Shown one piece after another: positions 15,846 to 24,960 of a DNA stretch of 64,000 bases. Under the pieces are notes generated by a model, which had not been told where the DNA came from, ran no database searches, and saw only the letters and a list, made by a program, of their open reading frames with translations. Numbering within the stretch: the stretch's first letter is position 1; each line of letters opens with the position of its first letter. This DNA comes from an uncultured delta proteobacterium (GTDB lineage: Bacteria; Myxococcota; Myxococcia; SLRQ01). The DNA lies in assembly GCA_963727485.1 (NCBI GenBank), contig CAVSGM010000002.1, positions 416,001 through 480,000 on the forward strand, read 5' to 3'. A program made the position numbers and the translations under genes.

Positions 15846-17773
<1,928 letters not shown>

Positions 17774-17900: not shown

Positions 17901-19298
17901 CTAACCGCCGTTGTCCCGTCGGGCTTCCGCGGGGGCCACCGGGGCGTCCTCGAGGTAGCGGAGGGTCCAGGACGGGGCGGTGACCGGGGGGGGCACGGCG
18001 ATCCGGACGCCCAGGATCCAGAGGACCGAGTCGCCCTCGGGGCCCCGGGCCACCAGCAGCGGCACGGCGCCCCGCGACGGCCTCGGCACCCGCGCCGCCT
18101 GCAGGAGCCGGGCGACCTTGGGGCCCCCGGCGAGGCGATCGCCGGGCGCGGGCCCCCGGAGCAGGAGGCGGTACGGCGCCGCGGGCACCGGGAGCACCAG
18201 GTGGCCAGCGCCGCCGGGGGTCACCTCGAGGACGCCTCGGCCCGGCAGGGGGTAGCGCCCCGGTCCAGGGACCTCGCGCTCGGCGAGGACGGGCCAGGGG
18301 CCCCGGCCGAAGAAGAGCCACCCCAGGGACCGCTCGGCGACCACGCCCCCGGGGAGGGTCGCCTGGGCCCCCTCGCCGGCGCCCCGGGCCAGCTCGAGGA
18401 GGGCGTCGAGGTGGGCGCCCTCCACGGGATCCACCGGGCCCGCCGCCGCCTCGCGCCAGGCCCGGGCCAGGATCCGCCGGGCCAGCGGCGCCGGGGCCGC
18501 GGCGAGGACCGCCGCCGAGAGGCCCCCCTCGAGGCCCGGGCCCCGGCCGGTGGCCCGGCGCCGCACCTCCGCCGCCAGGTCGTCGAGGAGGGCCGCCTCC
18601 TCGGCGGCGAGGGACGCAAGGCGCCCCAGGGCCTCCACCGCCGAAGGGTTCAGCTCACCGGCCAGGGCCGGGAGGAGACGCTGGCGCACCCGGACCCGGC
18701 GGAAGGCGTCCCGGTCGTTTGAGGGATCGTGGCGGACCGGGAGGTCGTGGGCCGCGCACCAGGCGGCGAGGACCTCCCGGCGGCAGGCCAGCAGCGGCCG
18801 GATCACCTGCCCGTGGCGCCGGCGGATGCCCGCGAGCCCCGCCGGCGTGGTGCCCCGGCCCAGGCGGAGGAGCACGGTCTCGGCCTGGTCGGTGGCGGTG
18901 TGGCCGGTGGCGACCCGGTCGGCGCCGACCTCCTGCCGGAGCCGCTCCAGGGCCCGGTACCGGGCGCGCCGGGCGGCGGCCTGGACGCCCCCCGGTCCCT
19001 CGACCTCGACCCGGGCGAGGCGGAAGCCCACCCCGAGCCGATCGGCGAGGGCGGCGACCGCGTCGGCGTCGGCGGCGCTGTCCGGTCGCAGGCCGTGGTC
19101 CACGTGGGCCGCCACCACCGAGGCCACCCCCAGGCCGGGGCCGAGGGTCGCCAGGGCGTGGAGCAGGGCGGTGGAGTCGGGCCCGCCGCTGGCGGCGACG
19201 AGGATCCGGGCGCCGCCGGGCCACAGCCCGTCGGCAGCGGCCGCCCGGAGCGCCGCCTCCACGGCCGCGAGGGCCTCGGGGCTGGCAATGGGGTGCAT
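17901..19298 (-). CDS. tilS: tRNA(Ile)-lysidine synthetase
   Basis: SGGPDS PP-loop, HVDHGLR, ATGHTATDQAET, RPLL, DPSN; lies upstream of ftsH. Confidence 0.92.
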   Translation of the reverse strand: MHPIASPEALAAVEAALRAAAADGLWPGGARILVAASGGPDSTALLHALATLGPGLGVASVVAAHVDHGLRPDSAADADAVAALADRLGVGFRLARVEVEGPGGVQAAARRARYRALERLRQEVGADRVATGHTATDQAETVLLRLGRGTTPAGLAGIRRRHGQVIRPLLACRREVLAAWCAAHDLPVRHDPSNDRDAFRRVRVRQRLLPALAGELNPSAVEALGRLASLAAEEAALLDDLAAEVRRRATGRGPGLEGGLSAAVLAAAPAPLARRILARAWREAAAGPVDPVEGAHLDALLELARGAGEGAQATLPGGVVAERSLGWLFFGRGPWPVLAEREVPGPGRYPLPGRGVLEVTPGGAGHLVLPVPAAPYRLLLRGPAPGDRLAGGPKVARLLQAARVPRPSRGAVPLLVARGPEGDSVLWILGVRIAVPPPVTAPSWTLRYLEDAPVAPAEARRDNGG

Positions 19299-19305
19299 GG
19301 GGGGT

Positions 19306-19334
19306 TTGTGGGATTTGGGCGTTCGGCCTATTGT
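19306..19334 (+). promoter_or_regulatory. sigma70-type promoter, TTGTGG-N17-TATTGT
   Basis: -35 at 19306-19311, exact 17-nt spacer, -10 at 19329-19334; points away from tilS. Confidence 0.6.
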
Positions 19335-19339
19335 AGGAG

Positions 19340-19577
19340 ATGCGGCAGGAAAGGGCCCTAAGGTCGGAGTTCCGACCTGGAATGCGGGTCTCAGTGGCCC
19401 TGTTCAGGACGAAGCGAGCAGCAGAATGGGATCCGGGGAACCCCCTCCCCCCCGGGTTCCGGGGGCGGCCGGTCCGAGCGGGCCGGCGCCCCAAACCTCT
19501 TCGATGGGATGGACTCTGGGGATCCCCCTCCCCCTAGGGTCCCCGGCCTCCGCGCCCCGCGCGGGGGCCGGTTTTTT
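19340..19577 (+). ncRNA. putative structured small RNA with two tandem C-rich-loop hairpin modules
   Basis: Bounded by a promoter and an intrinsic terminator. Hairpins at 19361-19378, 19437-19460 (loop CCUCCCCCCC), 19462-19492, 19518-19544 (loop CCCUCCCCCUA) and 19543-19571. Confidence 0.6.
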
Positions 19578-20526
19578 CCGTCGTCGGGACCCGGGCGCCG
19601 CCGTCCGGGTCCCCCGCGCCGCCGTCCACCACGGCGCGACCGCCGTCGGGGGCCGCCGCGCCGCCGGCCCCGCCGCTCCGCCCGCCGCCCCGCCGTCCGC
19701 CCCGCCGTCCGCCCCGCCGTCCGCCCCGCCGTCCGCCCGCCCCACCCTGCGCGCCGCCCCCGAGGTTCGCCGCGAGCCACGCCGAGATGACGGCCCCGCC
19801 CACGCCGAGGGACCGGCTCCGGTCCGGGGTCATGCGCAGGGCCACGGCCACCAGGCGCCCCCGGGTGTCGAAGGCGGGGATGCCGTTGAGGGCCTGCCCC
19901 GAGAGGTAGAGGGTGGGCCCGTCGACGAGGGCCGCGGCGAGGCGGACCGACGCGGCGTCCCCCTCGAGGGTGGCGGGCATGACCACCTCCGAGGCGTTGG
20001 CCTCCCCCGCAGGCGGCGGCACCGGGCCCACCCCGACGACGGCCTGGAGCTTGGGCGCCTTCGCCGGCTCGAAGGTGAGGAGCGCCAGGCCCACCCGGGC
20101 ATCGACCTTCCGGACGCGCAGCGGCAGGTGCCGGCCGCTCCGGAGGACCGCGTAGACGCGGGTGGCCCCGGTGAGGTACCGGGCGGTGGTGAGCAGCACC
20201 CCTGGGGCGACCACCGTCCCCCCGCCGTCCTCGACGCGCAGGTTGTCGGGGTCGTAGGGGGGCGGGGGCACGTGGACCGTGTCCACCCGGACCACCCGGC
20301 GGGCCAGGTAGTACGCCAGGTCGATCTGCTGCTGGGTGTAGCGCAGGTCGAAGCCGCCGTCGGGGACCTCGAGGTCCTGCGAGGGCGGCGGCCAGGGGGC
20401 GTTGAAGCGGGCGCGGTGCGGCACCCACCAGCCGTGGCCCCCGCCGGCCCCGAGGAGGAGCACCGTCGCCGCGAGCCCCGCGGCCACCGCCGCCAGGGCG
20501 GCCCCGAGCCGCGCGCGGCCCCTCAC
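19534..20526 (-). CDS. exported trypsin-like (S1C) fold protein lacking the catalytic triad; low-complexity tail, 3' end uncertain
   Basis: Signal/TM segment; GTVVAPGVLLTTARYL, DARVGLALL and LNGIPAFDTRGRLVAV match the trypsin_2 pattern with H, D and S replaced; GTGA overlap with the polymerase stop. Confidence 0.6.
   Translation of the reverse strand: MRGRARLGAALAAVAAGLAATVLLLGAGGGHGWWVPHRARFNAPWPPPSQDLEVPDGGFDLRYTQQQIDLAYYLARRVVRVDTVHVPPPPYDPDNLRVEDGGGTVVAPGVLLTTARYLTGATRVYAVLRSGRHLPLRVRKVDARVGLALLTFEPAKAPKLQAVVGVGPVPPPAGEANASEVVMPATLEGDAASVRLAAALVDGPTLYLSGQALNGIPAFDTRGRLVAVALRMTPDRSRSLGVGGAVISAWLAANLGGGAQGGAGGRRGGRRGGRRGGRRGGGRSGGAGGAAAPDGGRAVVDGGAGDPDGGARVPTTEKTGPRAGRGGRGP
19543..19577 (+). 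terminator. Rho-independent terminator
   Basis: CCGGCCTCCGCGC-ccc-GCGCGGGGGCCGG stem (one G-U pair) followed by TTTTTT. Confidence 0.75.
19687..19734. repeat. 12-bp tandem repeat x4 (GCCCCGCCGTCC)
   Basis: Four perfect copies, read directly. Confidence 0.9.
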
Positions 20527-22262
20527 TCCTTGGCCCAGTGGTCGGCCACGGTGACGTCGACCACCGTGGGCACGGACGCGAGGAAGGCGTCGCCGGCGGC
20601 GACCATCTCCCGGCGCAGGACCTCGGCGGCGGCCTCGGCGTCGCCCTCGGCGGCCTCGACCACCAGCTCGTCGTGGACCGAGTTCACCAGGAAGGCGTCG
20701 AGGCCCTCGCGCCGGAAGGCCCGGGCGGCCCGGGCCATGGCGAGCTTGGTGATGTCGGCGCTGGTGCCCTGGATGGGCATGTTCCGGGCGACCCGCGAGA
20801 GGGACGACCGGCGCTCGGGATCGTCGGTGCCGTCGAGGTAGAGGCGCCGGCCGGCGAGGGTCACGGCGTAGCCCCGACCGAGCCCGGCCTCGGCGGTTTC
20901 CTCAAGGAACGCGCGGATCTTGGGGTAGGTCTTGAAGTACTGCTCGAGGAGCTTCTCCGCCTCGGGGACCGGGATCTCGAGCTGCCCGGCGAGGCCCGCG
21001 GCGCCCATGCCGTAGACCAGGCCGAAGTTGATGGCCTTGGTCCGCGCCCGGAGCTCCGGGTTCTCGGTCTTGCTCACCGGCTTGCCAAAGAGCCGGCTGG
21101 CGACGATGGCGTGGAGGTCGCCCCCGTCGGCGAAGGTCTTGACGAAGACCGGGTCGCCGCTCATCTCGGCGAGGATGCGCAGCTCGCAGGTGGCGTAGTC
21201 GGCGGTGACCATCCGCCGGCCCGCCGGCGCGGCGAAGGCGGCCCGGAAGGCGTCCCCGTGCTGGATGTTCTGGAGGTTCGGGTCCTGGCAGCTCGCCCGG
21301 CCGGTGGAGGCGCCGATCTGGCGGAACCGGGGGTGGATGCGCCCGGTGACCGGGTGGATGTGGGCCAGGAAGCCCTCGCCGTAGGCCGAGAGGATCTTCT
21401 GCTGGGCCCGCCAGGCGAGGAGCCCCCGGGCCACCGGGTGGTCGACCCGCGAGAGGGTCTTCTTGGAGAGGTCGGGCAGCTCCTCGTAGCCGAGGCGGGC
21501 GAAGACGTCCCGGAGCTCGGTCTCGGACTCGTAGTTGACCTGCACGTTGCCGAAGAGGTCGCCGCCGACCACCGGCAGCAGCGCCTTCTCCAGATCCTTG
21601 CGGGCGGCGTCCCGGGCGGCCCCGGCCCCGGCGAGGATGGCCTCCCAGGCGACGCGGTCGAGGTTGATCCCCCGCCACTCGAGCTCGGCGAAGGCGTCGA
21701 CGGCGGCGCCCTCGATCTGGGCCACCCGGGACAGGCCCGCCCGCTCGATCTCCGGGGCCTGGGCCACGAAGAGGTGCCAGGTGGCGAGCACGTCGTCGAG
21801 GGCGTACTCGATCTGGCTCTCGGTGAGGGTGCCCTCGAAGCCCACGAAGGTGGTGCGCTCGGCCTTGTCCAGGGAGATGCCCACCCGGCGCTCGGCGCTG
21901 GCCTTGAGGGTCCGGGGGCCGATCTTGCGACCGCCGGCGATGAGCATCTCCAGGAGCATGGTGTCCTGGGGACGGCTGACCTCGAGGCCCAGCTTCTTGA
22001 GGAACTTGAGGTCGAACTGGGCGTTGTGGAAGACGGTGATCCCCGGGCGCTCCAGCACGGCCTTCAGGGGCGAAAGGTCGGAGATCTGCCGGGCGTCCAC
22101 GGCGACCCGGAGCCGGTCGTCGCCGATCTGGATGAGGAGGGTCTTGTCCCGGTGGGGATCGAGGCCGGTGGTCTCGAGGTCGCAGGCGAGGACCGGGCGG
22201 CCCTCGAGGCGCCTGACCGCCTCCCGGAGGGCGGCGTCGTCCTGGATCATCCGCAGGTCCAC
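20523..22262 (-). CDS. family A DNA polymerase, Klenow-like (3'-5' exonuclease plus polymerase, no 5'-3' nuclease domain)
   Basis: ExoI DLETTGLD, ExoII HNAQFD, ExoIII YALDD; STGRASCQDPNLQNI; motif A DYATCELRILA, motif B RTKAINFGLVYG, motif C VHDELV. Start is GTG 22262 or ATG 22250. Confidence 0.9.
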   Translation of the reverse strand: MDLRMIQDDAALREAVRRLEGRPVLACDLETTGLDPHRDKTLLIQIGDDRLRVAVDARQISDLSPLKAVLERPGITVFHNAQFDLKFLKKLGLEVSRPQDTMLLEMLIAGGRKIGPRTLKASAERRVGISLDKAERTTFVGFEGTLTESQIEYALDDVLATWHLFVAQAPEIERAGLSRVAQIEGAAVDAFAELEWRGINLDRVAWEAILAGAGAARDAARKDLEKALLPVVGGDLFGNVQVNYESETELRDVFARLGYEELPDLSKKTLSRVDHPVARGLLAWRAQQKILSAYGEGFLAHIHPVTGRIHPRFRQIGASTGRASCQDPNLQNIQHGDAFRAAFAAPAGRRMVTADYATCELRILAEMSGDPVFVKTFADGGDLHAIVASRLFGKPVSKTENPELRARTKAINFGLVYGMGAAGLAGQLEIPVPEAEKLLEQYFKTYPKIRAFLEETAEAGLGRGYAVTLAGRRLYLDGTDDPERRSSLSRVARNMPIQGTSADITKLAMARAARAFRREGLDAFLVNSVHDELVVEAAEGDAEAAAEVLRREMVAAGDAFLASVPTVVDVTVADHWAKE

Positions 22263-22394: not shown

Positions 22395-22574
22395 ATGCGC
22401 GGCACCAAGAAGCGAAGCATCTACGTCCCCGCCGACATCCTCGAGGAGATCGAGCACGAGATGCAGCGGCAGGAGCGGACCATGTCCTGGCTGGTGCAGC
22501 AGGCCTGGCGCGTCGCCCGTCCCACGATCCAGAGCCTCCCCGGGGTCGAGGATCACTTCTCCGGCGTGGCCTGA
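22395..22574 (+). CDS. CdbA-family (TIGR04563-type) ribbon-helix-helix small protein, divergent paralogue
   Basis: KKRSIYVP...RQERTMSWLVQQAW aligns with the cdbA gene at 24754; AGGAG RBS. Confidence 0.85.
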   Translation: MRGTKKRSIYVPADILEEIEHEMQRQERTMSWLVQQAWRVARPTIQSLPGVEDHFSGVA

Positions 22575-24753: not shown

Positions 24754-24960
24754 ATGGCCGGCACCGACAAGCGAAAGCAGAGCCTTTACTTCCCCGAGGA
24801 CATGCTCAAGGAGATCCAGGAGGAGGCGGCCCGGCAGGACAGGTCCCTCTCGTGGGTCGTCCAGCAGGCGTGGCGCCTCGCCCGTGGCGAGATCACGAAG
24901 TTCCCCTCGGTGAACGACGTCATCGGCGGCAGCGACGACATCCGCGGCCGGGACGAGTAG
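24754..24960 (+). CDS. cdbA: c-di-GMP- and DNA-binding ribbon-helix-helix nucleoid-associated protein CdbA
   Basis: MAGTDKRKQSLYFPEDMLKEIQEEAARQDRSLSWVVQQAW, recognised from memory as nearly identical to Myxococcus CdbA. Confidence 0.85.
   Translation: MAGTDKRKQSLYFPEDMLKEIQEEAARQDRSLSWVVQQAWRLARGEITKFPSVNDVIGGSDDIRGRDE

Follow-up and report, generated by a model that had tools for sequence, protein, structure and literature searches.

Several bacterial small RNAs, including 6C RNA, RsaE, RepG and LhrC, expose C-rich loops that are reported to pair with G-rich stretches of mRNAs, often without Hfq, and another small RNA, CcsR, is under the control of a stress sigma factor. In M. xanthus, a model for bacterial multicellular development that is reported to lack Hfq (10.1101/2025.09.11.675593), the characterised small RNA is Pxr, the direct targets of which have long been undefined. 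A recent origin in a single lineage of myxobacteria has been proposed for Pxr, and a single C-to-A change in its C-rich loop is reported to abolish function (PMC5684412). In addition, MXnc1, an intergenic candidate small RNA of M. xanthus, is described as binding close to the Shine-Dalgarno (SD) motif of several mRNAs (10.1101/2025.09.11.675593).

We find that the gap upstream of tilS in the window (the whole 64,000-nucleotide stretch of DNA that was analysed) holds a member of a new, class-wide and uncatalogued candidate family of small RNAs of this familiar design, which is tandem at this locus and has an ortholog in M. xanthus. The original prediction had proposed a structured, noncoding plus-strand RNA with an exposed C-rich loop and a stem in which pairing is under selection. 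Folding, covariation and the unpaired state of the loop all agree with that proposal, the motifs quoted are present at their positions, and the element is wider in scope than was first supposed. The features of the locus are collected in Table 1.

Two hairpins upstream of tilS and the class-wide conservation of the single-hairpin unit

Table 1. Features of the tilS-proximal RNA locus and its neighbours (positions in the window)
Feature	Position	Strand	Basis or remark
Distal sigma70-like promoter candidate, TTGTGG-N17-TATTGT	19306..19334	+	Sequence; predicted
SigR/SigH-type ECF promoter, GGAAT-N18-GTT	19379..19404	+	Predicted start near 19410-19414
C-loop hairpin copy 1, 11-bp stem	19428..19460	+	Loop 19439-19449; folding
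GC-rich hairpin after copy 1, without U tail	19462..19492	+	Folding
C-loop hairpin copy 2, 11-bp stem	19511..19542	+	Loop 19522-19531; aligns with the class-wide hairpin
Intrinsic terminator, 13-pair stem and six T	19543..19577	+	Overlaps 3' end of convergent ORF 19534-20526
tilS, divergent neighbour marking the locus, outside the RNA	17901..19298	-	Pfam PF01171 and PF09179
Convergent ORF	19534-20526	-	No Pfam or NCBIfam match
Family A DNA polymerase gene, beyond the convergent ORF	20523-22262	-	3'-5' exonuclease and polymerase domains
Ribbon-helix-helix genes of CdbA/CdbB type (TIGR04563), two	22395-22574 and 24754-24960	+	

The module does occur twice, as originally read: the pattern ATGGGAT with CCCTCCCC within 25 nt is found at two sites in the 5.55-Mb genome, both of them in this gap, and a blastn search of the same genome gave, among the matches listed, only the self-repeat and short GC-rich matches. 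The U-tailed intrinsic terminator is likewise borne out by a terminator scan, which returned a 13-pair hairpin (19543-19571) followed by a T-run, with 0.1 such sites expected from shuffles. The GC-rich hairpin behind copy 1 is likely a duplicated, inactive terminator stem. The stems had been drawn in registers with folding energies of -11.6 (copy 1) and -14.4 kcal/mol (copy 2), which are 6-9 kcal/mol weaker than the 11-bp stems that form the stable, conserved register (19428-19438/19450-19460 at -21.0 kcal/mol and 19511-19521/19532-19542 at -20.4 kcal/mol). Similarly, ATGGGAT had been counted as part of the module; it overlaps the stem in copy 1, ends before the stem in copy 2 and is lost in relatives, and thus does not belong to it.

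Folding favours an RNA of the plus strand. The region 19428-19577 has a plus-strand folding z score of -3.26, a stability that 0 of 200 shuffles reach, compared to -0.74 on the minus strand, the plus strand folds more stably in 20 of 23 variants, and G-U pairs favour the same strand. In the full RNA, the loops are predicted to be unpaired, with probabilities of 0.98-1.0 for the loop bases of copy 1. The loop has the form C4-8-U-C3-5, is closed by GG and is 10-13 nt long among the orthologs, and none of the 23 aligned variants has lost the U that interrupts the C-run and recreates the anti-SD core CCUCC. Of 136 distinct contexts, 120 share one and the same 13-nt loop, a count biased by the retrieval of many contexts through a scan for that very motif. 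The aligned relatives have a terminator-like stem behind the hairpin, and the Myxococcaceae form of the RNA has three hairpins.

The stem pairing covaries in an alignment of 23 hairpin variants; the full set of 26 also held two loop-length duplicates and a row in the wrong register. The covariation score is 0.370, compared to 0.227 in shuffles, none of 500 of which reaches it, and two-sided changes occur in 4 of the 11 stem pairs, a number reached by 16 of 500 shuffles; these statistics ignore kinship, and related genomes are not independent. The row for copy 2 of the window is misaligned, which counts against structure. Overall, 98.4% of the stem cells are paired, a figure inflated by the preselection of variants for at least 9 of 11 pairs. 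Further two-sided changes are seen by eye in families outside the training set (L337, L339 and L340).

No convincing coding sequence lies within the unit, as the original prediction had noted. The 65-aa ORF at 19340-19537 has a GC3 of 0.71, below that of all 4081 reference genes, and no Pfam match, and loop lengths of 10-13 nt exclude a conserved reading frame; we therefore rejected a peptide product.

As regards the neighbouring genes, the stop codon of the convergent ORF falls within the 3' arm of copy 2 and its final codons are antisense to the terminator; the same ORF carries a 12-bp GGRR-coding repeat near 19690-19740. No 5'-3' exonuclease domain was matched with Pfam in the family A DNA polymerase. 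The two TIGR04563 genes are displaced 3-5 kb from tilS by inserted genes, and ftsH (15846-17773, minus strand) is split into two ORFs that overlap; the reading frame shifts near 16470, through either an assembly error or a real frameshift.

To follow the element through the class, we used a covariance model, R1, built from 11 sequences. R1 matches 140 of the 151 class genomes at E ≤ 1e-5, a count that includes one unpublished genome (G199) and up to seven, the window's own among them, that had supplied training rows. In a sample of the phylum, R1 matches 43 of 47 other genomes of the same class at 58-90 bits, and scores inside the class span 51-92 bits, while only 5 of 103 genomes of other classes match, at 30-35 bits. 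None of these five was accepted as the same element: two are plain terminators and three are C-rich hairpins without tilS in the fetched flanks. The C-rich-loop hairpins with a terminator in three genomes of other classes of the phylum, with no tilS seen in their flanks (L218:1034-1112, L219:975-1052 and L217:1026-1109), are possibly another small RNA family; two of them have a clear sigma70-like promoter by eye, and an exact-pattern search for this hairpin variant found it in 3 of 301 genomes.

The position of the element is also conserved, as shown by a comparison of tilS-upstream regions of the kind suggested in the original prediction. Of 30 fetched tilS loci, 27 have the hairpin upstream; in one of the three without it, the contig breaks off 105 nt from the gene on that side. 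Among the 41 nearest genomes, 36 have the element, which is divergent from tilS in all 36, at 125-299 nt from the tilS match (measured in G031 from an N-terminal tilS fragment); the same orientation is found in 14 of 14 further genomes, and hence in all 50 that were checked. A pattern search of GTDB gave at least 120 matches, and those listed are mostly from Myxococcaceae and Anaeromyxobacteraceae, including M. xanthus AM003 (L062), in which the element sits between tilS and cdbA; this points to Myxococcia as the class. With a hairpin-only model, R2, a search of five genomes recovered the known copy in G024, and there was no convincing copy elsewhere among the 7 of 12 weak matches that were inspected.

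Some records outside the class fit the search pattern. A palindromic repeat in Caulobacteraceae-type and other proteobacterial records (L039, L046, L067, L068, L110, L122, L133 and L145) fits the loop pattern; the five tested score below 19 bits with R1, and the repeat is thus unrelated. Records titled Comamonas sp. (L074, 58.5 bits) and Fredinandcohnia sp. (L033, 72.5 bits, itself a training row of R1) carry the full element, suggesting that DNA of myxobacteria was wrongly labelled or binned.

One hairpin and its terminator form the core unit, and the tandem form is a recurrent but sporadic variant of it. The original reading of a tandem unit was correct in that both copies are real (copy 1, which is not among the training rows, scores 38.6 bits with R1, E 3.8e-6), but the layout is not typical: two full modules are found in 3 of the 140 genomes with the element, G000 (the window's genome), G009 and G212, which belong to three different families. 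G009 and G212 have the layout of the window, with a hairpin, a tail-less second stem and a second copy. In G003 the first copy is degenerate, and the other matching genomes have one module, a count from which weak extra copies may have escaped, since copy 1 of the window was itself missed in large searches. A second copy would be expected to raise dose or avidity.

Promoters and mapped 5' ends

The original prediction had relied on a single promoter, TTGTGG-N17-TATTGT, and a start near 19340. A consensus promoter scanner called no promoters for this sequence, but 66 of 131 distinct contexts have a looser sigma70-like pattern no more than 220 nt from the stem, compared to 4.1 expected from shuffles. 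Overlooked was a nearer and better conserved promoter, the GGAAT-N18-GTT listed in Table 1: GGAA[T/A/C]-N17-19-GTT is found within 100 nt of the stem in 100 of the 131 contexts, whereas 1.9 are expected from shuffles and none is found on the reverse complement. GGAAT-N18-GTT is the reported SigR consensus (PMC2375139), and the RNA is therefore preceded by a motif of the SigR/SigH (ECF12) type. Transcription thus probably starts near 19410, either in addition to the start near 19340 or in its place, and we predict that the RNA would start from this ECF promoter and from a weaker housekeeping promoter.

A candidate for the corresponding sigma factor is encoded in the window's genome at G000:C1:1236520-1237107 (L184), with a zinc-finger anti-sigma gene behind it and GGAAT-N18-GTT before it. 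The product is SigH/SigR-like: its best matches are TIGR02947, at 183 bits (cut-off 251.6), and SigH structures, at E 3e-42. The gene is present in 40 of 41 genomes, and the motif lies upstream of it in 9 of 12 loci, compared to 1 of 12 on the reverse strand. G011, the only genome of the 41 without the factor, is also without the RNA, a single case. The gene order, alanine dehydrogenase (assigned by eye), sigma factor and zinc-finger anti-sigma factor, matches MXAN_4146-4148, and by synteny the pair corresponds to MXAN_4147/4148; we take MXAN_4147 to be rpoE1. This conserved factor would be expected to read the ECF promoter of the RNA. By eye, the anti-sigma factor looks membrane-bound, unlike the soluble RshA, so the signal need not be thiol stress.

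Throughout the window's genome, the GGAAT/GTT motif peaks at spacers of 17-19, and the 38 sites listed there include ones that precede clpS-like and pspA-like genes. The SigH/SigR-like factor and its motif sites are a candidate class-wide stress regulon.

The M. xanthus ortholog can be placed on published 5' ends. In DK1622, tilS is given as starting at 5367386 and cdbA at 5367841 (PMC9548883); the spacing of 455 nt is also that of L062, from which four M. xanthus-like runs differ by 14 substitutions without any gap, and this puts the stem at ∼5367558. In Table S2B of PMC8844925, Cappable-seq 5' ends on the plus strand are listed for each of the five time points at 5367534 and 5367539/40, and these lie 4 and 9-10 nt past the GTT of the promoter. 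Two others, at 5367547 and 5367554, are listed only at 6-24 h of development (PMC8844925 Table S2B). The published ends thus fall 4-24 nt before the stem. The signals are modest, at 32/16, 30/39, 24/18 and 22/10 for 5367554, where the main cdbA start is given 96/143 at 0 h and 14-28 later (PMC8844925), and their authors place them under cdbA, for which starts at -44 and -54 are also reported. The table seems to end ∼310 nt before a gene, and the distal promoter falls beyond that distance. The same source reports a ChIP peak of MrpC beside the ortholog, at 5367509, and a term search of its main text gave no mention of a non-coding RNA (PMC8844925).

In RNA-seq, run X23, the single raw run used for depth (three contig runs carry no level information), shows no peak over the hairpin; depth there is 20-30, the background of both strands, while in cdbA it reaches 719. 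Libraries of this kind often miss RNAs that are short and structured, but the result still counts as a negative one. Coverage of cdbA in X23 begins near L062:645, ∼250 nt past the hairpin, which places the hairpin outside the main cdbA leader. The predicted-sRNA table of PMC9548883 has no entry at the ortholog locus, and we found no description of an RNA at the tilS locus in the literature, where the ncRNA survey of Whitworth and Swain (2020) may list it as uncharacterised. With a conserved promoter and terminator and with 5' ends mapped in M. xanthus, set beside the lack of a peak in X23, the element is likely transcribed as a small non-coding RNA.

Modes of action

The most likely reading, and one that we consider fairly probable, is that of a predicted trans-acting small RNA, the loop of which pairs with G-rich, SD-like stretches of mRNAs. 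The anatomy of the RNA points this way, in that a conserved stem presents a single-stranded C-rich loop, as in the trans-acting C-rich-loop small RNAs, and so do the invariant CCUCC core, the independence from the downstream gene and the precedent of the loop substitution in Pxr. The exposed CCCCUCC loop would pair with SD-like stretches and lower translation, and we infer that it would serve as a base-pairing seed acting in trans without Hfq, no homolog of which was found with PF17209 in the window's genome (93% complete).

After target searches, the anti-SD pairing proposed in the original prediction is still a candidate mechanism. Perfect complements of the loop lie before ATG 90 times in five genomes, compared to 35 control matches; ordinary SD bias explains this excess. 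No conserved target emerged among 61 candidate ORFs of six genomes, the number left by a codon filter in a comparison of exact motifs before ATG, and the one cross-genome pair appeared by eye to be coding sequence. Duplex energies against start regions gave no coherent target set, and the enrichment at SD positions is partly circular, as SD-like starts had been favoured in gene calling.

An alternative, which we consider unlikely, accepts the RNA as real but has a protein, such as one with a KH domain, or one fixed RNA as the partner of its near-invariant loop, so that the RNA would serve as a decoy or scaffold. The identity of the 13-nt loop in most contexts (subject to the bias of the motif scan) and the failure to find a conserved mRNA target both speak for it, and the window's genome encodes a KhpA/B-type KH protein, with no Hfq found; some KH domains bind poly-C. 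Variation of the C-run from 4 to 8 suits pairing as well as it suits protein binding, but retention of the U that creates the anti-SD core in every aligned variant argues for pairing.

We think it distinctly improbable that the element acts in cis, as a leader or attenuator of cdbA, or that it arose as a by-product where the promoter of the divergent tilS lies, with a terminator serving as insulator. The link to tilS does not vary, but three of the genomes sampled, G011, G015 and G025, keep tilS without the element, and a mere terminator needs no invariant loop in a separate hairpin. Similarly, many records of Myxococcaceae and Anaeromyxobacter have cdbA right behind the RNA, and the published 5' ends were assigned to it, but the gene downstream varies, cdbA lies within the fetched locus in only 6 of the 14 further genomes, and the window and its family have a convergent gene next. 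Moreover, cdbA has starts of its own, and its X23 coverage begins past the hairpin. Finally, it is very improbable that the 65-aa ORF is the product or that the element works at the DNA level, through a G-rich site or a hairpin on one strand or the other, since, although an open frame spans the unit and the MrpC peak lies beside the ortholog, the GC3, the lack of a Pfam match and the frame-breaking loop lengths all speak against a peptide, and the G-U pairs and folding favour RNA.

A core function is suggested by the retention of the hairpin in 140 of 151 class genomes, at a fixed locus next to tilS that in M. xanthus also adjoins the essential cdbA. Coordinates, a harmless and genetically tractable organism, a candidate sigma factor, developmental 5' ends and a Pxr-like loop make each of the proposed steps directly testable.

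Comparison with Pxr and other C-rich-loop RNAs

No Rfam family reaches its gathering score in the window or in the orthologs, which answers the check that the original prediction had called for: 10 matches over eight ortholog loci all fall below it, as does the single weak match in the region of the window, that of RF02344 over copy 2. RF02344 (ar14, the Cuckoo/alpha-r14/CcsR family) resembles this RNA in its modular hairpins with anti-SD-like loops, its variable number of modules and its U-tailed terminator. The families differ in the loop, which is C-run-U-C-run here and not CCUCCUCCC; that motif is absent from the 26 hairpin variants, and the degenerate upstream copy in G003 comes close to it. 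In agreement with this difference, the RF02344 scores are 21.8 bits in the window and 23.3 in G003, compared to a gathering threshold of 58.8. This RNA also usually has one module, G000, G009 and G212 being those with two, and belongs to a different phylum, as RF02344 is from the Alphaproteobacteria.

The RNAs 6C, RsaE, RepG and LhrC are from other phyla and loci, and an Rfam search up to E 10 gave no match of this RNA to any of them. Identity with the TRIC-seq candidates of M. xanthus, such as MXnc1, was rejected on position: the loci reported for these lie near MXAN_RS24205 (6.23 Mb) and MXAN_RS10995 (2.64 Mb), and not at tilS-cdbA (5.37 Mb).

Pxr (RF01812) shares more of the design. In both RNAs a C-rich loop closed by GG is presented by the first hairpin (C7-A-C2-4 in Pxr, C4-8-U-C3-5 here) and an intrinsic terminator forms the end; the Myxococcaceae form of this RNA has three hairpins, as Pxr does, and tandem paralogs occur in both (for Pxr, PMC5568312). 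The two differ in locus, as Pxr lies at pxrR/nla19, separate from tilS-cdbA in the same genomes; in promoter, which is sigma54 for Pxr, behind pxrR, and of the ECF/sigma70 type here; and in distribution, since within one family 22 of 23 genomes have Pxr, as against 0 of 18 genomes beyond it, while this RNA is class-wide.

As to the relation to Pxr that had been raised in the original prediction, the comparisons show a likeness of the loop alone. The Pxr model has no match up to E 10 in the window, nor in the window's genome, and its best ortholog score is 22.5 bits (E 3.7), compared to a gathering threshold of 80. In reverse, Pxr scores at most 20 bits with R1, below plain terminators, and nhmmer comparison of the two RNAs gives at most 2.9 bits. 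The mean local score against 10 Pxr sequences is 24.4 for 118 orthologs and 20.1 ± 2.1 for 270 terminator controls, and falls to 17.4 with the loop masked. Thus, as far as alignment can tell, the likeness to Pxr is confined to the loop, with no similarity once the loop is masked; between RNAs as short as these, a deep homology may escape such a comparison.

Three observations concern Pxr itself. Divergent Pxr-like RNAs (L203-L208 and L210) score 36-59 bits, below the Rfam cut-off, and conserve the loop and the 3' end. The Pxr-like RNAs of G019 and G016 have no obvious sigma54 motif by eye, and G034 has two Pxr-like RNAs. Published Northern blots of Pxr show a band of non-Pxr RNA with a probe that covers the C-rich loop (PMC5568312 Figs 3b and 4b), and this band could be cross-hybridisation to the RNA described here.

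In its mode of action this RNA is probably similar to Pxr, but the two are distinct. It is possible, if rather doubtful, that this RNA is an older, class-wide sibling of Pxr, or the source of Pxr, and shares its targets. If so, Pxr would have taken its C-rich seed loop from a stress-sigma-driven RNA, and the two would act on shared G-rich targets in M. xanthus with opposite timing, Pxr in growth and this RNA in starvation. Such timing would fit both the MrpC bound nearby and the new 5' ends of development, and the RNA would then be an overlooked second arm of the switch from growth to development. This RNA thus bears on the origin of Pxr.
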